Notes under the pieces: model-generated | Database searches by the model: none | The model's input: the letters and a program-made list of their open reading frames with translations, nothing else | Told to the model about the DNA's origin: nothing | Shown here: piece after piece, positions 11,582 to 60,906 of the stretch | How positions within the stretch are numbered: the first letter of the stretch is position 1 | How the letters are laid out: every line of letters begins with the position of its first letter | Position numbers and translations under genes: made by a program | Source of the DNA: a virus | Lineage: Duplodnaviria > Caudoviricetes | Reading direction: 5' to 3' (one strand) | IMG/VR virus record: IMGVR_UViG_3300036783_000180 | Coordinates: 64,001-128,000 of that record | Length of the DNA: 64,000 nucleotides

Positions 11582-12541
11582 CTAAGCTTCGTTATTTTTT
11601 CGGTATAAGTATAACTCAACATTGCCTAAACCGCGAACTTTATCTGTCCATTCGCCACGAGCACCCTCTACCGCTTCACGTACCATGTACATTTTCGCAT
11701 CCATGTTATCTAAGAAGTGCAAGAATACCGCTTCAGGCATTTGTGGTTTTTTCGGGCTACCCCACTCAGCCTTGTCATGATGACTCACAACTAAGTGCTG
11801 TAATGCTTCTTTTGTATCTTGCGGAGTATTATATTCTATCGATAGTTGTTCAATTAACATAACACCTTGTACGATGTGCCCTAACAACTTTCCGCCACTT
11901 GTATAGTTAGTAACACTACCATGTTCAGCGTCCGTTTCAGTTGTTTTTTCAATGTCGTGCAAGATAACACCTGCATATACTAGGTCTTTATTCAAGAACG
12001 GATATAAAGGTAATAGTGCATCAGCTAAACGTAACATAGATAATTCGTGGAATAATAACCCTCCGTAAATCGCATGGTGCATACCCATTGCAGCGGGATA
12101 TGTTTTTAAATCATGTTGTCGCTTCGTAACAGCTCCTGCCACAATACTACGAATGTTATCATCCTCAATATTTTTACCGAACTCAATCAATTCTTTAAAC
12201 ATATCGTCAATAGGAATTGGTGCTGATTTAATGAAATCAGCGATATTCATTTTACCCTTTGGTGCTGGTTCAATATGAGTGACCTTCAATTGAAGTTTTC
12301 CATCCCATTCATTACCTACACCAACTACACGCACAAATTTGTTTTCTAACATCGCTTTTTCGTTTTGAATTAAAGCAGCATCCCAAACTTTAGCTAAGAT
12401 TTCACCTGTACTATCTTGCAACCAAACATCAAAGTAATCAGTGTTCTTAGTTGTTTTTCCTCGTTCCAAACTCTTAATCATAAAGAATCCGTGAGCTTTT
12501 TGATTTAATTCAATATCTTTAACTTGATAATTCGCTTCCAT
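11582..12541 (-). CDS. yhaM: YhaM/Cbf1 3'-5' exoribonuclease (OB + HD)
   Basis: OB fold (LQDSTGEI..KVWD), PAA..MHHA..GGLLFH, ILHDIEK, SHH...WGSPK.P..PEA. Confidence 0.9.
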   Translation of the reverse strand: MEANYQVKDIELNQKAHGFFMIKSLERGKTTKNTDYFDVWLQDSTGEILAKVWDAALIQNEKAMLENKFVRVVGVGNEWDGKLQLKVTHIEPAPKGKMNIADFIKSAPIPIDDMFKELIEFGKNIEDDNIRSIVAGAVTKRQHDLKTYPAAMGMHHAIYGGLLFHELSMLRLADALLPLYPFLNKDLVYAGVILHDIEKTTETDAEHGSVTNYTSGGKLLGHIVQGVMLIEQLSIEYNTPQDTKEALQHLVVSHHDKAEWGSPKKPQMPEAVFLHFLDNMDAKMYMVREAVEGARGEWTDKVRGLGNVELYLYRKNNEA

Positions 12542-39316: not shown

Positions 39317-39345
39317 AGTATATCATGTTCAAAAGACTTTGAAAA
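39317..39345 (-). promoter_or_regulatory. Early promoter with TTGAACATGA-TATACT element
   Basis: Same element as the sRNA-array promoters; lies just after terminator 39354-39380. Confidence 0.7.
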
Positions 39346-46301: not shown

Positions 46302-47489
46302 TTAATTAGCTTTAAAGTTATATAGAGGTTTAATGATATCTTTGATATCGATTATATCTTTTGTATTCTCAACAATTTCATCCATCGGCTTATATACCAT
46401 TGGCGCTTCATCCAGTGTGCTTTCCACAACAGAAGTTGTCCAAACATCAGCCATTGTGTTTTGGAAATCTTCTAGATTAAGTAACTCTTTCGCTTTCCTA
46501 CGGCTCATGATACGTCCTGCTCCATGTGGTCCAGAGAAGTTCCAATCAGGATTACCTTTACCGAACGCAATAATAGAACCGTCTCTCATATTAATTGGAA
46601 TAATTACTCGTTCATCTTTTTGGGCTGAAATTGCACCTTTACGCATAATCATATTTTCCATGTCGATATAGTTATGGATTGTAGCGAATTCATCAGTTAT
46701 CTTCCAACCCATTCTAGTAACAATTTCATTAATCATCGCTTTACGATTTAATCCTGCATAGCGTTGCGCAATTACCATATCGTTCATGTAATCTTTGAAT
46801 CCTTGACCTTCTAGATAAGCAAGTTCTTTACGAATCTTCGGTTGCTTAACCCCACGTAAAGCTTCATGGATTTCTTGCTGTCTACCTTCTCTCGTTAAGC
46901 GCTCAATGATTTCGTCTTTCGTTGACTTAACATTCATCAGTTGCTCATAAGCAAGGTTTTGATAATGTTCCGCTATTTGTTTTCCTAAGTGACGAGAACC
47001 ACTATGAATAACAATGTACACATTACCCTTAGCATCTTCATTCAGCTCAATAAAGTGATTCCCTCCACCAAGCGTACCAATACTGTTTTCAGCGCGTTGT
47101 AAATTAAACGGAGCTCTCACACTACCAAAGTCAACCATCTTTGCGAAGCCATGTGCCTTACCACGGATAGAGAATCCACTTGGCACAAACTTATAAATTG
47201 TTTCATCCAATTGGTCGAAGTTGATTTCTTCTTTCTTCTTATCGATGATAGCAACATGCATCCCGCAACCGATATCAACCCCTACGAGATTCGGGACAAT
47301 CTTATCTTGAATCGTCATTGTTGTTCCAATTGTGCATCCAGCCCCTGCATGTGTATCAGGCATAACACGAATCTTGCTACCTTTTACAAACTCTTGGTTA
47401 CATAGATCAATAATTTGACCTGCCGCAGTTTCCTCAACGTTATTAGTGAACACCTTCGCCTCATTGTATTTACCTTGTAGTTTTAACAT
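46302..47489 (-). CDS. rtcB: RtcB RNA-splicing/repair ligase
   Basis: MPDTHAG.GCTIG, VGVDIGCG, GTLGGGNHFIE, HSGSR, HNY, HGAGR, DEAP..YK. Confidence 0.95.
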   Translation of the reverse strand: MLKLQGKYNEAKVFTNNVEETAAGQIIDLCNQEFVKGSKIRVMPDTHAGAGCTIGTTMTIQDKIVPNLVGVDIGCGMHVAIIDKKKEEINFDQLDETIYKFVPSGFSIRGKAHGFAKMVDFGSVRAPFNLQRAENSIGTLGGGNHFIELNEDAKGNVYIVIHSGSRHLGKQIAEHYQNLAYEQLMNVKSTKDEIIERLTREGRQQEIHEALRGVKQPKIRKELAYLEGQGFKDYMNDMVIAQRYAGLNRKAMINEIVTRMGWKITDEFATIHNYIDMENMIMRKGAISAQKDERVIIPINMRDGSIIAFGKGNPDWNFSGPHGAGRIMSRRKAKELLNLEDFQNTMADVWTTSVVESTLDEAPMVYKPMDEIVENTKDIIDIKDIIKPLYNFKAN

Positions 47490-50220: not shown

Positions 50221-51753
50221 CTATTCTCCTTTTACTTCTTCAATTCGGTCTAACCATTTCCAGTTGATCCATGCTTTTCCGCTATCTGGTTCACCGTCTG
50301 TTTCAAAAACTTCAACACCTAAATTACCACCATTTGTTTCTATCACCATACATTTATAATCAACTACATTTTCTTCTAAATCAGTAAACTTAATTTTATA
50401 AGTCTTTCCAATTTCAAAGAATGACATCACTAGTGTCCACGGTTTAATAGATTTAGGTTCTTCCGTTTGCTCTATATGCTCTGATTTCGTGCTGATAGTA
50501 ATTGGCTCTTTTATTTCGATATCAACGATATCTAACTCAGAATCAAATCCAACAACTAATCCTTTTTGCCCTTGTCGTTTTCCAGTTAAAATTGTTGCTT
50601 CTTTGTTTACTATTACTTGTTTCATTTCCATCACTCTCCTTCTAATTCGCCTGTACCTTTACAAACATCACATTCCCAAAAATTCATAGCGCCCCAATCT
50701 AACCCAACACCTTTACCGTCACAACTGTAGCATTTTTTATCTTCTTCTACTTCTTCCACAGCAAGAGTATAACCTTCGATGTCACCATCTTGCTCCATTG
50801 AACGGAAGTAATTGTGTAGAGCATTGTTTACACAATTCTCTACACCTACTATCTCAGTTGATTCATCTTCGTATTGTTTTACATCTACAATTATCTTGAA
50901 TTCTTGCTTCATTCGTTATCATCCTCTCTCACCATATCTTCCACAAAGAACACAGGGAGATTTGCTGATGCTATATCAACCCAACCTCTAAAACCACCAC
51001 CACTTAACAACACACCGTGATTATCCATTCCCAATACTTTTAAATAGTTTTCTGAATCTGCATCTCGTGGTAATACGTCACCAATCTTATACTCATTTAA
51101 CAGGCGACCTTTCTTAGCGAATGCTGCTGCTCGTTTCGCCACCCTAATTTCATTTGGAGTAGCTACGCGCACATCTTTTAGTAACCATTCATTTGTTTGA
51201 CCAGCAATTCCAACTTGAAGTGTCGGAACATCGTCTATGTGATACAATTTTATTACTTCAGATACTTCAAATTCTTTCTCACTTACTACCTTCGTAACCC
51301 AGTCACCAATTTCGATTTCTACATAAAAATCCCATACTTCATGAGGAACTACTTTGAATGCAACATCAGTTTTGAGGTTATTATATTTCATTGAGCCATT
51401 ACTCAAGACAGTTACAAGCTTTCCAATGTCCCTTCTAATAAATTGGTCACCTTGTTTAAAGTGACCAAGCTCTATGCCGCGTAAAATTTCGCCTCTTGTT
51501 AAATTCGTTGTCTTTACTTCGCTCATCTGTCATCATCCTTTTCTAAGTCTTTTCTTGTCATCAGAACACGATTACCTGTGTATTCAGGTATTGCTTTGTC
51601 GCCTTCTTGTCTATGAACCAATACAACACAAACGAAATTACCGTGAGTCTCTTGCAATACTCCGTATATCTTTCTGTTAAGTTGCTTAAAATACGCCTTT
51701 GTTGTTCTTACCTTGTCGCCTGCTTTTAATTCATTCATTTTATCTTCACCCAA
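50221..51753 (-). other. Four hypothetical CDS (SH3/KOW-like and Zn-finger small proteins)
   Basis: Coupled ORFs. Confidence 0.6.
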
Positions 51754-52007
51754 TCATTTGCAGCTATATCACCTTTAGATGGTTGCCATCCTATGTGTAA
51801 TTGATTCGCTGTATCTTTTAATACAAAAGCACCTAAGAAAGTTGGTTCGCCTAGATACTCACCATAACCGTATTTAAGCGCTGCTGAAATTTCATGACCG
51901 CGATGATGATACACAAATTTACCTACAGGCCATTTCTTACGTTTATAAGAAGCTCCTTCTAAACCATAGTTCTGCTGCATATCCTTACGTGCTTCTTTCC
52001 ACTTCAT
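51735..52007 (-). CDS. DUF2829 / Tad2-like anti-defence protein
   Basis: N-terminal M.W.EA...R..W and C-terminal GWQPSKGDIAANDW match the DUF2829 pattern. Confidence 0.65.
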   Translation of the reverse strand: MKWKEARKDMQQNYGLEGASYKRKKWPVGKFVYHHRGHEISAALKYGYGEYLGEPTFLGAFVLKDTANQLHIGWQPSKGDIAANDWVKIK

Positions 52008-55055: not shown

Positions 55056-56351
55056 TCATAGTTCCTTCTTCTTACGTAACTCATATCTAGCACCTCTCCA
55101 TTTCTTACGTCTTTCTTCGGTACTCCGGAACATGAGCATGAAATCATCAGCACTAATAATACGTCTCGGTTTATTATCGATGTAAATAATCCCCATTGTT
55201 TCAAAGCTGTTATCATCGACATAAAATTGTGCTAATACACCACAATACTTCATAACCTCACGACGTTGCTTTACCGTTTCGTTAAGCTGACTTAAATCAT
55301 CTACATCTAATACATCCTCTTTACCTAACATGAAATGGATATAGGCTGAGAAGTGATTCGAAATCATTACGCCATGCTTTGCTTTCTTTATCTTACGTCT
55401 TGGTGCATACCTCATACTCTCATCTCCGCATTTCCTGTTTTTGAATATCGCTCACCGATATCTTCAAATATCGTAAACCCTGCTTTCATACGAGTAGATG
55501 CTTCCATTTTAAACGCCATCGATTTATCATAGAATTTCATGCTCAGTCCATGCAGGTTTCTAATTCCAATCAGCCCACCTTCTTCAACTGGTCGGTCAAA
55601 TATGGTATACAGTCCCGGTGTCCCTGTTCCTACATGATGCACCAATTCATCTAGTGTCATCATGTATTCAGGCTTATCTAGTTTCAGTGCAAGTTCTCTA
55701 GCAAACGATATTCTTTTTTCGTGTGGATTTGTAATTTGGGTATCAGGCATACGAATCATATCCAAGATTAAGCATTGCAATAAACATAACCTTTCATTAT
55801 CATGCATATCATTCAATGGATCCGTCATCTTTTCCAATTGATTTACCGTTTTATATAGTAAATAGTTGTTTAATCCTATATCTCTCGCTTTTCCCAGTTC
55901 CGCATCTGTTACTTCTGTTTGCCAATTGTGAATATCATCAGTCTTCTTAACCGACATATGTATGCGGTTAATGGCAACGTAGCAATCTTCTTGCGTCATT
56001 TCGTTCATCACATGCATTATGTTTTGTAAGTACTGCAAGTCCCTAACAGAACCAAATCCTATTTTATCTGTTTTCTTTAAAGCTCCATCTTGTGTGCCGC
56101 CCATTTTCACTAATTCTACAATTCCTTTTACCTCATTCATTCCGCATTCTCCTTTACGCTATTCTCGCTATTAAACAAGTGAATCCATATCTTTTATCTT
56201 CCTTAACTTCCATCGCATCAAGAGATTTCCTTAAACTCTCGATATCAATAATAGATAAATGGTCGTGGCTATCAATCGCATCGATCGTATTTTCCACGCC
56301 CTCTACAAATTTCACATGTGCCGCTACTATTACAACGAACTTCTTCTCCAT
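55056..56351 (-). other. Three hypothetical CDS (55056, 55412, 56154)
   Basis: First genes of the operon behind promoter 56450. Confidence 0.6.
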
Positions 56352-56449
56352 GACATCACCTCACGAAAAAATTAAACAATATACTCCTGTATATTGTTAT
56401 TACTTTGCTTTTAACATACGACACCGTTCGAGTGCTTTTAACAATTCAT

Positions 56450-56479
56450 ATCATATCATGTTCAAGGAAGTTTTGACAG
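56450..56479 (-). promoter_or_regulatory. Early promoter TTGAACATGA-TATGAT for the long early operon
   Basis: Extended -10 plus conserved element. Confidence 0.65.
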
Positions 56480-56499
56480 TTCGATTCTTTTAAAATGCA

Positions 56500-56664
56500 C
56501 AAAGAAAAGGCGCACTCATAAGAGTACGCCTTTTCTCCAGCAAGAAAGATTAGATTTTAGGAATTAAAATCAATGAATGAAAGTCGATATCTGCCAAAAA
56601 GGTATTACCTTAGCAACAGAATGAAAATCTGTAGACCAGAATTTAAAGCAATTCAACAAGGATT
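56500..56664 (-). ncRNA. sRNA unit 1 (~165 nt)
   Basis: Promoter TTGACT-17-TATACT (56699-56671); terminator 56501-56536. Confidence 0.7.
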
Positions 56665-56702
56665 ACCTTAAGTATACCGATTTGGATTTTATAAGTCAAT
56701 AA

Positions 56703-56812
56703 CGAAAAAGAGCCACGCATAAGCGTAGCTCCTTCCCAACAATTGGAGTATTTCACAATGATTCAAACCGTAACAATTCGACCTTAGAACAGTAACATTG
56801 ATGAATGACAGT
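56703..56812 (-). ncRNA. sRNA unit 2 (~110 nt)
   Basis: TTGAACATGA-TATACT (-10 at 56819-24); terminator 56704-56731. Confidence 0.7.
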
Positions 56813-56993
56813 GACCTAAGTATATCATGTTCAATGTAAAAAGAAAAGACCTAATCGAATTAGGTCTTTTCTGGCGTCAGTTTTGAAACTATTCGGAGTA
56901 TGCAATTCCATAGCACTTGTACTTAAAGGTGGGAAGTCCGACTCTCCTACAAGACAAACTTCTAAAACAGTGACCTAAGTATATCATGTTCAA
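56808..56993 (+). repeat. 27-bp direct repeat ACAGTGACCTAAGTATATCATGTTCAA (56808-56834, 56967-56993)
   Basis: Exact repeat covering the promoter and 5' end of units 2 and 3; a similar ~37-bp pair at 57368 and 57710. Confidence 0.9.
56838..56971 (-). ncRNA. sRNA unit 3 (~135 nt)
   Basis: -10 at 56978-83; terminator 56838-56872. Confidence 0.7.
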
Positions 56994-56996
56994 CGC

Positions 56997-57202
56997 AAAA
57001 AGAAAACACCTAGCTTCCGTTGCTAGGTGTTTTCTGAGACTCAATATGTCTCGTAAAGGGTTGTTGGAGCCTGAAGGCTCACCGGCAATAAGGTTTATAA
57101 TTCAAAAAGGTTGAGAAAAATAAAACTAAAATTGGATTGGTATCAAACATAGACATTGTAGAGACAGATTCATAACAAAAGCAGTTAAGAAAAAGTATCA
57201 GC
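56997..57202 (-). ncRNA. sRNA unit 4 (~205 nt)
   Basis: TTTACA-17-TATAGT (57237-57209); terminator 56997-57035. Confidence 0.7.
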
Positions 57203-57248
57203 ACAATTACTATATCATGTTCAAAGTAGTTTGTAAAGTCAGAACAAT

Positions 57249-57366
57249 AAAAAAGAAGACTATGACCGCAAAGGCATAATCTTCTTCATAAAAAGGTGGT
57301 GTAACAAGCATGACTCATCAAATCTTCAAAAGCTCTCGAAACTAATGAAGGAATATCGCGTTGTGC
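57249..57366 (-). ncRNA. sRNA unit 5 (~118 nt)
   Basis: TTGCAA-17-TATATT (57401-57373); terminator 57249-57286. Confidence 0.7.
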
Positions 57367-57404
57367 ATACATAATATATCATGTTCAAGTTACTTTTGCA
57401 AATA

Positions 57405-57512
57405 GAAAAACTAAAGTCCCTAGCAATCGTGTGCTAGGGACTTTAGTACCCAAAACATATATTAAAAGGATCACCATGGAACAAAAACCACATCTTACAA
57501 CTACAGCTCGTC
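57405..57512 (-). ncRNA. sRNA unit 6 (~108 nt)
   Basis: TTGACT-17-TATTAT with TG extension (57547-57519); terminator 57405-57446. Confidence 0.7.
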
Positions 57513-57550
57513 CTAGTCATAATAACACCTTTCACAAAGTCAGTCAATAT

Positions 57551-57708
57551 AACGTAAGGAACCCTCGGTTTTCCGTGACCGAGGGTTCTAAGTAAGAAAA
57601 ATAAGCTTATAAAAAAAGAAGAAAGGAAAAATTGAACAAGCAACAAGTAATCGCCAACTCGTAATCACACTGTAGAAATCTGCGAAGCTCATAACCAGAA
57701 ATGAGCTT
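57551..57708 (-). ncRNA. sRNA unit 7 (~158 nt)
   Basis: TTGCAA-17-TATATT (57743-57715); GC-rich hairpin 57559-57588 with weak U tract. Confidence 0.65.
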
Positions 57709-57745
57709 GTACATAATATATCATGTTCAAGGAACTTTTGCAAAT

Positions 57746-57881
57746 AAAAAATAACTCCCTTTGGGAGAGGGAGTTATTTTGGGAATCTGAGGGGACTCCC
57801 TAACGCAGTAAAATAGTTACACTACAACCAGCAAGATATCACACCAAGATATCATACACCAATAAGAATTTAACAACCAGT
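57746..57881 (-). ncRNA. sRNA unit 8 (~136 nt)
   Basis: TTGATT-16-TACAAT (57915-57888); terminator 57746-57780. Confidence 0.65.
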
Positions 57882-57911
57882 GCATTTATTGTATCATGTT
57901 CATAGGAAAAA

Positions 57912-60230
57912 TCAAGTAGTTATTTTTGTCCACTTCGGTTCTCCTAAATCAGATACACCAAGTCTCCAGTAACTTCCGTCAGGAGATTGTTGCACGATTC
58001 CTTTTGTTTTATCAGCAATCATGATGTCTCCGTACACCTTGTTATCTGTTTCCGTGCTCATAAACGCAGTACCAATGCCGTCACCACTCGTAGCGAAGAT
58101 TCTATTAACACGAATTCCTTTATTTTCGTTCGTATAACCCCAAATAGTGAACTTTAGTTTATATGTTTTCGGACTACGCGTTGCAACGTGTACAGTAGAT
58201 GCACTATTCTTCGTGACCGTCGAAACATTCGTATATGGATTATCCACTTTTCCAATGACACGTTCGATTTTGATGTCCGTTGGCAGCTCTGACCAAGCAA
58301 ACATAATACCGACAGACTCTAAACTATCCAGTCCATTAGACCCAAAGTCAATTTCGATGATAGCGGGCGTTTCTTTCTTCACATCTACCCATTTACAGAA
58401 CTGTTCTCTCCGCAAGGAGAACATGCTAAAGATATTACCACCCGTTTTCGCTACGCCAAGCGAGTTCACTTTATATCGTTTGTCTGCTCCGACCAATATA
58501 TCGTCTTGATCACCAATCATTAACTTATCACCTGGTAATCTTGGCGTAAAATCAGGTAACTTACTGCCTTCAATATACGGAAGGTAGGCGCGGCCGCCAT
58601 CTTTTGTGCTTGTCATCATCACGCGAGAGATAATCACTGTATTATTCTTTAAGTTACTGCCCCAAAACTTAATCTGAACCTTTGTACATTTGTCAGCGCC
58701 AGCCCAAGCAGCACTAACAGCAATAGCTTGCGAACGATTTTGCTTCGTCCAGTGTACACCACCAACCCATTTGTTCGTAACCGCATCAAACATATCCAGT
58801 TCATAACCTTTTGGCTGACCACCCCAAGGAGATACAACAGATAAGAATGCTGCATACCAGCAAGGTTCTGTAGATAAGTCGATTTCTAACACAACTGGAT
58901 TGTCATACGTTACATTCGTCATATCAAACGTAACACCCTGCTCTGAATCAAACGAGAATAAGTAAGATAACTCACCTTCTTTGATTGGATGCGTACTCGT
59001 TTGCTTAATTGTGAACCCGCGCTGATTACCATTTACCATCCAGTCGTCTTGATTCCCTAAGAAGTTTGGCTTATACGGAATGGAAATCGGGAATGCATTG
59101 ATTCGTTTGTCAGATACGTAGTTATTCGGACTAGGGCAACTATTTAAGTATCCTCTGTCCCACCAAGATTCAGTTAGTTCTGCCGCCATAGCTGATTTCA
59201 CTTCGTTGAACTTACTTGTTTCTGTGAATTCAAAGGCTGGATTCTCTTCATTCATCTTGTGTAAATCCCAGAAGAAGCCGCTAAACCTATTCAGCGCGCT
59301 TTCGCAATAAATCATACGCTTCGTTCCTGCTTCTGCTTGGAGTTGTAATTGCGTAAAGATGTTTCCGCCCACATCACGAGGTATTTCATGCAGTCCTTCT
59401 AAGTATAATCCGTACTCAAAGTTCATTAACGTCACTTGGTGGAAGTGGTTTGCATTCACCCACGAAGGTTTTGTCTTATCTACGATAGATGGATCCACAC
59501 GAAGATGCACACCTTTCCCGATATTCGTCATTGTAATGTTATTAAAGTGAACATTGTTAATGTACGTATCAGGCTTTGTTGCTTCCATCAAGATTCCAGT
59601 ACCTTTCCATCCACTCGTTGCACGTTTCCCTTTAATATTAATGTTCTTTAGCGTATGGCTTTCCTCATAGAACTGGAACATATCTGTCGCATCGAAGTAG
59701 AAACATGCTTTTGTGAAGTCTACATTCATTTGACGTAGATCAACCGTCGCCCCTTTGATTTCTGCTTCAGGTTTCAACTGGAATATATGGTTATCGGCCA
59801 GAGGTTTGATAACTGCATTCGGCGCAAAGTCTAACACAACGCCCCTCGGAACAACAATTGTCTTAGATAATCTATATTCTCCGCCTGGAACGTACAAAGT
59901 TTTAATCGATGCGCCCCCTACTTTATCCATCGCAGTTAAAAAAGCCGATGTTTCATCACCCCTAACAGACATCGGATTAAAATCAAGTATGCTTAAGGCC
60001 CTTTCTGCCACCGTTATCGAAAGAGGTCTTGGAACTGGACCAAGGACTTCTGACGGACCTAAGTTTTTATCCAACAAATCAACTTTTTCCTTCGTTCGAT
60101 CCGCCTCGATTGTGACAGTCTTTAACTTTGCGTCCATTAGGACGCTTTGGGAATCCTCTGATTTCCCAACTTTTTCTTCCACGATATTTTCAATCATCGT
60201 GCGGTCATTTTCTGTATAATGACGTACCAT
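57912..60230 (-). CDS. Beta-helix (pectate-lyase-like) tail spike / depolymerase with C-terminal beta-sandwich domains
   Basis: SILDF...GDETSAF...LYVPGGEYRLS; Asn ladders; two related GDQDD-initiated domains; C-terminal QSPDGSYWRL.VSD.G. Confidence 0.7.
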   Translation of the reverse strand: MVRHYTENDRTMIENIVEEKVGKSEDSQSVLMDAKLKTVTIEADRTKEKVDLLDKNLGPSEVLGPVPRPLSITVAERALSILDFNPMSVRGDETSAFLTAMDKVGGASIKTLYVPGGEYRLSKTIVVPRGVVLDFAPNAVIKPLADNHIFQLKPEAEIKGATVDLRQMNVDFTKACFYFDATDMFQFYEESHTLKNINIKGKRATSGWKGTGILMEATKPDTYINNVHFNNITMTNIGKGVHLRVDPSIVDKTKPSWVNANHFHQVTLMNFEYGLYLEGLHEIPRDVGGNIFTQLQLQAEAGTKRMIYCESALNRFSGFFWDLHKMNEENPAFEFTETSKFNEVKSAMAAELTESWWDRGYLNSCPSPNNYVSDKRINAFPISIPYKPNFLGNQDDWMVNGNQRGFTIKQTSTHPIKEGELSYLFSFDSEQGVTFDMTNVTYDNPVVLEIDLSTEPCWYAAFLSVVSPWGGQPKGYELDMFDAVTNKWVGGVHWTKQNRSQAIAVSAAWAGADKCTKVQIKFWGSNLKNNTVIISRVMMTSTKDGGRAYLPYIEGSKLPDFTPRLPGDKLMIGDQDDILVGADKRYKVNSLGVAKTGGNIFSMFSLRREQFCKWVDVKKETPAIIEIDFGSNGLDSLESVGIMFAWSELPTDIKIERVIGKVDNPYTNVSTVTKNSASTVHVATRSPKTYKLKFTIWGYTNENKGIRVNRIFATSGDGIGTAFMSTETDNKVYGDIMIADKTKGIVQQSPDGSYWRLGVSDLGEPKWTKITT

Positions 60231-60298
60231 ATTTCTCCCTCCCCTCATTTCTATTATACAGAAAAGTTCTGAAATTTCTCAGTCTTTTAAACAAATAA

Positions 60299-60336: not shown

Positions 60337-60906
60337 CTATCGAAGTGGAGCTGGAATGAACGCATCACTACGGAAGTCAGTGCGGTAGATTGCACGAGCA
60401 ACCTCACCACGAGATACTTGCGTAGATGGACGGAAATTACCATCCTGCTCAACATCAGTTACGATGCCATGTGTGTAGCAAGCTTTTGCGAATGATTTTG
60501 CCCAATGACCGTCAAGATCTTTGAACTCATAGCGAGTTGATTCGAAGCCAGGTTTCACACCTAATTTGTAAGCTTTCGTAATAACAGTTACTAACTCACC
60601 GCGATTTAAAACGCGTTTTGGATAGAAGTTGCCTTCTGCATCCGGAGTGAAAATACCAAGAGCAGCCAAAGCTGTAATTGGCATACGATACGGATTATCT
60701 TGCGCCACATCTTTAAATGGATTTTTGTATTCTTGAGGAATAGCTCCAATCGCATTATAAATTGCAGAAGCAAATTGTTCACGAGTAATACCATCGTAAG
60801 GACCAAACTTACCGTCTCCAGTACCGTTCATAATCCCTTTTCCCGCAACATAATCAACAAAACCAAACGCCCAATGCCCTTCAGGTACATCTGTAAAACG
60901 TGCCAT
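60337..60906 (-). CDS. S-layer homology (3x SLH) protein without signal peptide
   Basis: FTDVPEGHWA...ITREQ; FKDV...LNRGE; FKDLDGHWA...VSRGE. Confidence 0.9.
   Translation of the reverse strand: MARFTDVPEGHWAFGFVDYVAGKGIMNGTGDGKFGPYDGITREQFASAIYNAIGAIPQEYKNPFKDVAQDNPYRMPITALAALGIFTPDAEGNFYPKRVLNRGELVTVITKAYKLGVKPGFESTRYEFKDLDGHWAKSFAKACYTHGIVTDVEQDGNFRPSTQVSRGEVARAIYRTDFRSDAFIPAPLR

Follow-up and report, generated by a model that had tools for sequence, protein, structure and literature searches.

To our knowledge, few small RNAs (sRNAs) have been described from strictly lytic phages, and almost none of these with a function. We analysed an array of eight promoter-body-terminator units, each a candidate sRNA gene, which occupies 1.4 kb on the minus strand at positions 56492-57915 of a 64,000-nucleotide (nt) window and heads the early genes of the phage. 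The window covers bases 64001-128000 of the 175,348-bp IMG/VR virus record IMGVR_UViG_3300036783_000180, the G+C content of the record being 36.9%. From the sequence comparisons given below, we estimate a probability of about 60% that the units are functional early sRNA genes arranged as exchangeable cassettes. A preliminary description of this stretch stated that no described system has such a layout. That statement was too strong, as comparable cassettes, the promoter-early stem-loops (PeSLs), have been found in the T4-type phages phi1 and RB49, each joining a terminator stem-loop to a strong sigma-70 early promoter (Arbiol et al. 2010, PMC2839356). PeSLs are repeated in the hyperplastic early regions, where they delimit the segments inserted, deleted or replaced between the two phages; they end in the Shine-Dalgarno sequence and start codon of an ORFan gene, and are thought to stop spill-over between early and late genes (PMC2839356). 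The phage analysed here is unrelated to the T4 type, being of Bacillus type with sigma-A promoters.

In the Bacillus phage SPO1, Stewart and colleagues reportedly found a host-takeover module made of many short early units, each with a sigma-A promoter and a terminator. The array resembles this module as a compact block of short promoter-terminator units in a large Bacillus myophage. The SPO1 units, however, encode small proteins with ribosome-binding sites, whereas those of the array carry no translatable open reading frame (ORF); in addition, the SPO1 module lies in the terminal redundancy, whereas the array of G001, a relative with terminal repeats, is located about 32 kb from the genome end. 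Early transcription of SPO1 is dependent on sigma-A (PMC13401047). The sRNAs of virulent phages, such as sRNA1 and sRNA2 of PAK_P3 (PMC4933390) and the snc/lnc RNAs of phage K (PMC9241854), come from single or paired loci. Together with the band C/D RNAs of T4, they resemble the predicted RNAs of the array in being stand-alone intergenic non-coding transcripts of about 100-500 nt, mostly of unknown function. Several of them lie by tRNA genes or are antisense to genes, and they were found by RNA sequencing; in contrast, the units of the array form a head-to-tail row of eight, with early expression predicted, and are known from sequence alone. The RoxS/RsaE-type sRNAs of Firmicutes act in trans through pyrimidine-rich seeds. 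The predicted units agree with this type in having their own sigma-A promoter, a length of 100-200 nt, no ORF, a 3' intrinsic terminator and exposed pyrimidine-rich stretches, but differ from it in lacking any sequence or Rfam similarity and in pairing with translation starts at chance level only.

Organization of the array

The array is located between a late structural gene, encoding the tailspike, and early ORFans, all on the same strand, and the stop codon of the tailspike gene lies inside the -35 element of the first promoter. Among the ORF-free gaps of the genome, the one that it fills ranks in the top four by size, and the layout is not repeated in the other large gaps. All eight units claimed in the preliminary description are present, each with promoter, body and terminator hairpin, and a ninth promoter of the same type precedes the first early protein genes (65 and 242 amino acids, aa). 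The units, numbered in the order of transcription, are as follows; promoters, terminators and the anatomy of sRNA genes are predictions at the level of consensus sequences. The positions given as "-10 end" are the ends of the -10 hexamers, and "TG" denotes the dinucleotide at -15/-14.

Unit 1 (U1), 57740..57915, minus strand: promoter TTGATT-16-TACAAT with TG, -10 end 57888; predicted RNA of about 142 nt; terminator hairpin 57780-57748
Unit 2 (U2), 57551..57743, minus strand: promoter TTGCAA-17-TATATT with TG, -10 end 57715; predicted RNA of about 158 nt; hairpin 57588-57559
Unit 3 (U3), 57402..57547, minus strand: promoter TTGACT-17-TATTAT with TG, without TGAACATGATA, -10 end 57519; predicted RNA of about 111 nt; terminator hairpin 57447-57410
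Unit 4 (U4), 57242..57401, minus strand: promoter TTGCAA-17-TATATT with TG, -10 end 57373; predicted RNA of about 125 nt; terminator hairpin 57289-57250
Unit 5 (U5), 56993..57237, minus strand: promoter TTTACA-17-TATAGT with TG, -10 end 57209; predicted RNA of about 210 nt; terminator hairpin 57035-57001
Unit 6 (U6), 56834..57006, minus strand: TG-extended -10 TATACT, -10 end 56978; predicted RNA of about 138 nt; terminator hairpin 56872-56842
Unit 7 (U7), 56702..56847, minus strand: TG-extended -10 TATACT over the tail of the U6 terminator, -10 end 56819; predicted RNA of about 111 nt; terminator hairpin 56737-56710
Unit 8 (U8), 56492..56699, minus strand: promoter TTGACT-17-TATACT without TG and without the motif TGAACATGATA, -10 end 56671; predicted RNA of about 173 nt; terminator hairpin 56539-56500
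Ninth promoter and leader, 56352..56479, minus strand: promoter CTGTCA-18-TATGAT with TG and TGAACATGATA, -10 end 56450; leader of about 92 nt; gene of 65 aa at 56154-56351
Lone outside copy of TGAACATGATA, 39321..39331, minus strand: in the gap upstream of a 530-aa early ORF

The TG dinucleotide is present in seven of the eight unit promoters and in the ninth, and a -35-like hexamer is set at a 17-bp spacer in five units and at a 16-bp spacer in one, in agreement with the promoter build originally proposed; in U6 and U7 the place of the -35 region is taken by the T-tract of the terminator just upstream. The 11-mer TGAACATGATA spans -23 to -11 in seven of the nine promoters. Within the 175-kb genome it occurs eight times, always on the minus strand, with seven copies in 56454-57902 and the lone copy listed above. 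The sharing of this element by six promoters, noted beforehand, was thus confirmed, with a seventh copy just below the originally assigned start of the array, in the promoter of the first protein-coding early operon. When one mismatch was allowed, nine matches were obtained, a number reached in no shuffle of the window. A consensus scan detected 17 promoter-like sites (9.1 +/- 3.3 in shuffles), 14 of them on the minus strand, and six terminator-like sites (1.6 +/- 1.3 in shuffles), all on the minus strand. The array contains 6 of the 23 strongest minus-strand sigma-A-like sites of the genome and forms its densest cluster of strong promoters.

The folding energies of all eight hairpins range from -15 to -27 kcal/mol, and the hairpin runs into a U-tract in seven units. 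A Rho-independent terminator in every unit, as first proposed, therefore holds with respect to the hairpins but not for U2, the hairpin of which is without an adjacent U-tract. Apart from U6 and U7, where they overlap, no more than about 3 nt separate the hairpin from the following -35 element (11 nt in the case of U2), so the terminator indeed lies right beside the following promoter. The joint, consisting of the descending terminator arm, the T-tract and the promoter, is the part repeated between units. Two families of joint repeats, 42 and 46 nt in length, were identified with four copies each, and the closest pairs are 93% identical: the U4 promoter against the U2 promoter over 42 nt, and the U5/U6 joint against the U6/U7 joint across 46 nt. 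The duplication of promoters and 5' ends was hence correctly recognized before, but the pairs concerned are units 2/4 and 6/7 instead of 2/3 and 5/7. The bodies are unique to each unit and U-rich (34-43% U), as described, but not C-rich (14-21% C). At the level of prediction, each unit has its own promoter, a length within 50-300 nt, an intrinsic terminator and no translated ORF, the features of a stand-alone sRNA gene.

Conservation of the array among related phages

The 242-aa protein encoded next to the array has five relatives in metagenome assemblies, and the contig L243, added via the tailspike cluster, makes up a fourth phage together with L129. The same units were found in the same order in four related metagenomic phages (L130, L131, L243 plus L129, and L133). 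In each of the three aligned pairs, the arrays are 93-94.5% identical. For comparison, identity is 84-88% in the flanking tailspike gene and 72-81% in the 242-aa gene, falls to 58-78% when only third codon positions of flanking genes are counted (76-78% in the 900 nt adjoining the array), and amounts to 75-92% in other intergenic stretches. The bodies are conserved across the relatives to the same extent as the promoters (93% versus 92%); the U2 body is 94-98% conserved, and in L130 and L131 the U8 body is 99-100% and its terminator 100% identical. The alignments show that the array, its predicted bodies included, is under purifying selection.

Among 28 variable pairs of the predicted stems, 18 stay paired, five through a double change and 13 through a one-sided change. 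The changes that keep pairing include those in the hairpins of U2, U4 and U7 and in an internal hairpin of U5. An A-U pair is replaced by G-C in the U2 hairpin, a compensatory pair is found in the U4 terminator, and the U5 internal hairpin GAGCC/GGCUC reads GAGCU/AGCUC in L131, the U5 sequences of the relatives carrying in addition indels of 1 nt and 7 nt. In U7 all ten variable pairs remain paired (two compensatory and eight one-sided changes), seven of them in the terminator.

Outside these relatives, a blastn search of GenBank phages gave no match to the array, nor was the 242-aa protein matched there. The B4-type phages, which have the closest tailspike, were considered as carriers of the array and rejected, since ordinary genes follow their tailspike gene and the array is absent; it is absent as well from the prophage homologue of the tailspike. 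A scan of IMG/VR with a 14-mer of the motif yielded scattered single matches only and was too unspecific, and a scan with a two-motif pattern found none. A pattern for the leader hairpin behind the ninth promoter was matched in these scans by G001, the distant relative, and otherwise only by L134, an unrelated metagenome contig of 1.2 kb in which the motif is lacking.

Gain, loss and exchange of units

The gap after the tailspike gene measures 1.66 kb in L130, 1.52 kb in L131 and 0.44 kb in L132. An extra unit following U3, designated U3b, is present in L130 and L243 and absent from two genomes. It consists of a promoter (TTTACA-17-TAAGAT), a body of about 70 nt and a terminator, and sits as an insertion between the tail of the U3 terminator and the -35 element of U4, flanked on both sides by AGTTTTT(T)ATTT. 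This sequence and the -35 element are common to the joints at which units turn over. U1 exists in three body versions among the relatives, each placed between the common promoter and the common terminator. The distant relative G001 (L132) is a complete 174-kb genome with terminal repeats, in which the flank protein is 57% identical; the site of the array is occupied there by two non-coding units whose sequences are unrelated, with the same final promoter and leader again coming after them. Its array is so far from the genome end (about 32 kb, as given above) that a role in DNA entry is probably to be discounted. Comparison of the genomes shows that whole predicted units have been gained, lost and swapped at the terminator/promoter joints, in line with the modular and expandable build suggested in the preliminary description.

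The array thus joins, like a PeSL, a terminator stem-loop and a host-type promoter in one short cassette; similar copies of the cassette (two families, and seven of the eight TGAACATGATA copies) are repeated in a plastic early region; and the differences between phages, namely the insertion of U3b and the replacements of the U1 body, are bounded by cassettes. It differs in that its eight successive cargos are non-coding and conserved, only the ninth promoter leading to a gene. Since the joint features of PeSLs are found and the ORFan cargo is not, the array can be described as PeSL-like cassettes with putative RNA cargo.

This likeness raises an alternative, that the functional elements are the joints in the DNA and not the RNAs. 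A PeSL-like stack would then keep the late tailspike operon insulated from the early genes, load or titrate host RNA polymerase and offer sites for recombination, the short transcripts being by-products. It is in keeping with such a role that the joints are the repeated parts (42-46 nt, 93%), that units come and go at the joints, that no part of the genome is denser in strong promoters, and that the array stands between a late structural gene and early ORFans of the same strand; PeSLs have been documented to terminate and promote transcription and to mediate shuffling (PMC2839356). By-product spacers, however, would not be expected to be as conserved as the promoters, far above neutral sites, as are the bodies (93%, and 99-100% for U8). 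Furthermore, insulation would need just one terminator, and the cargo of a PeSL comes with a Shine-Dalgarno sequence and a start codon, neither of which is present in the units. We therefore regard this alternative as unlikely.

Folding and target searches

Several observations weigh against functional sRNA genes. That the eight units are early, and that they are transcribed into RNAs, is what we infer from sequence. U2 may read into U3, because its hairpin has no U-tract. Part of the high identity of the array could result from recent exchange of the segment among phages. Ten of the variable stem pairs lose pairing, mostly in weak helices of the bodies, and covariation is thin because the relatives are close. 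The bodies, folded without their terminators, are no more stable than shuffles (z from -1.7 to +1.6) and so give no evidence of a specific fold; selection would accordingly act on the sequence and the 3' hairpins and not on an elaborate fold. Searches for targets were likewise negative. Sense and antisense matches of the units to the rest of the phage genome were no better than those of shuffles, duplexes with 120 phage translation starts were no stronger than those of dinucleotide shuffles (z from -1.5 to +1.5) or of mid-gene controls, and complementarity to an rRNA operon did not exceed that of shuffles. The unit bodies had no match in 401 Bacilli genomes plus 93 of one genus, which were sampled in place of the true host. 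The proposal that the bodies are guide sequences found no support in any of these searches.

A more specific form of that proposal is that the RNAs are antisense guides which, by analogy with RoxS/RsaE, would occlude translation-initiation regions through pyrimidine-rich, anti-Shine-Dalgarno-like seeds. The sequence CCTTT is present in six of the eight bodies against 2.1 expected, a count that no shuffle reached, and is mostly placed in unpaired stretches of the predicted folds; the motif had been noticed before the test, so that its excess is a post hoc hint of such seeds and no more. Against the guides stand the duplexes with translation starts at the level of shuffles and mid-gene controls, the absence of long complementarity to the phage genome, and the loss of the C-rich terminator loop of U1 in L131 and L243. 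We consider antisense guides of this kind decidedly unlikely.

The search of about 490 Bacilli genomes returned only look-alikes of terminators and promoters, and the 13-mer TTGAACATGATAT was not a multi-copy signature in Bacilli. One of the promoter look-alikes concerns U2 and U4, whose promoter, TTGCAA-17-TATATT, has the spacer CTTGAACATGA (57715-57743 and 57365-57401). In register, it agrees at 28 of 31 positions with a promoter that precedes a 16S rRNA gene by about 225 nt in four species belonging to a single Bacilli genus, with genome sizes of 4.5-7.6 Mb (L166/L189 and L164/L183). By its score alone this match is borderline across about 490 genomes, and it is the location that makes it notable. 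Other rRNA promoters of that Bacilli genome share TTGCAA and ACATGATAT(A/T)T. This finding suggests that the promoters of the phage are modelled on the strongest ones of its host, which would fit RNAs needed in quantity; the likeness may reflect promoter mimicry or capture, or may be a clue to the host. Ten species of the same genus (L165, L167, L168) have another chromosomal locus, which matches U4 over 33 nt at 89%. The match runs from the promoter spacer to the first transcribed bases, a small hairpin with a T-run follows, and the match is maybe due to chance.

Coding potential and known RNA families

As claimed before, the gap is devoid of ORFs led by a ribosome-binding site. No usable Shine-Dalgarno sequence was found before any ORF in the eight units, and the gene calls of the contig index leave the stretch between tailspike and early genes empty in every genome. 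Nearly all ORFs of at least 15 aa are broken in at least one relative, by indels of 1-2 nt, by a 7-nt deletion or by loss of the start codon; U4, for instance, carries a 2-nt insertion in L130. Substitutions between the array and its relatives are without 3-nt periodicity. A protein-coding reading of the units was rejected on these three grounds, i.e., missing Shine-Dalgarno sequences, broken ORFs and aperiodic substitutions.

A special case would be very small proteins translated without a Shine-Dalgarno sequence, from leaderless or otherwise non-canonical starts, as the counterpart of SPO1-type host-takeover genes. The ATGs that open the longest frames of U1, U2 and U4 (22-35 aa) stand just after the -10 hexamer, and a 29-aa frame of U8 starting with TTG is intact in the relatives. 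The distance of these ATGs from the -10 hexamer is, however, only 0-2 nt, upstream of any expected start site; the ATGs of U1 and U4 read ATT in relatives, that of U4 opening the only long ORF of the unit; and frameshifts interrupt the ORFs of U2, that of 35 aa in L130 and that of 51 aa in L130 as well as L131. The survival of the U8 frame is uninformative because its stretch has almost no substitutions. With the aperiodic substitutions and the missing Shine-Dalgarno sequences added, such proteins are highly improbable. A replication origin or R-loop site was also considered and dismissed by argument only, there being no iterons and the U-rich RNA being expected to form weak hybrids.

A match to a known RNA family had been named as an outcome that would refute a novel sRNA array, and no such match was obtained. 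The best Rfam match on the array (E up to 10) scored 28.5 bits against a threshold of 60 and lay on the opposite strand; on the whole window and on the arrays of the relatives nothing came near the threshold. ARAGORN detected neither transfer RNA (tRNA) nor transfer-messenger RNA genes in the window or in the whole genome.

The early leader and the genomic setting

The leader behind the ninth promoter contains a hairpin at 56360-56395 (minus strand), all-A/U and of 10 bp (ACAAUAUAC...GUAUAUUGU), followed by a U-run and placed directly before the ribosome site. Its stem is identical in the distant relative L132 (7735-7770) despite differing flanks, and the hairpin may be an attenuator or a protein-binding site. 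The lone outside copy of TGAACATGATA also has a counterpart in G001, about 15 kb downstream of the array of that genome. A 68-aa gene is found between the leader and the 65-aa gene (at about 56352 of the window) in four relatives (7575-7781 in L130, 7575-7781 in L131 and 799-1005 in L129); it is missing from the phage of the window and from G001. Among the early proteins adjoining the array, no Pfam or PHROG assignment points to an RNA partner. Farther downstream in the early region, a 90-aa gene at about 51735-52007 (minus strand) encodes a Tad2-like protein, of the anti-Thoeris sponge family, and the early region of the relatives also carries vWA-TerF-like and metallophosphatase genes (precomputed Pfam matches, contigs L129-L133).

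The tailspike (57912-60248, minus strand) has 65% of its residues in common with its counterparts in the B. cereus phages B4, B5S and Spock, and its C-terminal part shows 53-57% identity with prophage proteins of B. cereus, B. albus and B. wiedmannii. The best identity of the capsid protein is about 28%, to Bacillus phage G. The phage is a poorly charted Bacillus-type myophage, with a host that probably belongs to the B. cereus group. Upstream of the tailspike gene are encoded proteins with SLH cell-wall-binding domains (60337-60906 of the window, minus strand; 1213-3496 in L130), a set that in the relatives includes an NlpC/P60 peptidase. The host assignment is not settled, because the nearest genomic matches of the SLH proteins (about 30%) are from Paenibacillus. 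The phage also encodes an RtcB RNA ligase (E 1e-66) and a protein with an OB-fold plus an HD domain, at 46302-47489 and 11582-12541, respectively (both minus strand). In a genome free of tRNA genes, the ligase and the HD protein may serve RNA repair against host anticodon nucleases.

A possible role in host takeover

If the units are functional sRNA genes, host sigma-A RNA polymerase would fire at eight strong promoters soon after infection, and eight discrete RNAs of about 110-210 nt would be released before, or together with, the first early proteins. Host factors, and possibly those of the phage, may be the targets of these RNAs, which would act in trans either through short stretches of base pairing or by decoying RNA-binding proteins, and the row of terminators would also block read-through from the tailspike gene into the early genes. 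It is tentatively proposed, as one possibility, that the array does with RNA what a host-takeover or anti-defence module does with proteins, being a set of distinct early RNAs acting in trans as guides or decoys against host functions or defences and re-armed by unit swaps at the joints.

The locus offers eight conserved and separately promoted sRNA candidates within 1.4 kb, directly upstream of an early region in whose relatives a Tad2-like anti-Thoeris gene is found, the proteins of this clade being otherwise unannotated. Should the RNAs prove real, cassette shuffling in the style of PeSLs can carry RNA cargo besides ORFans, and the array would provide a compact test bed for host takeover at the level of RNA in Gram-positive hosts.

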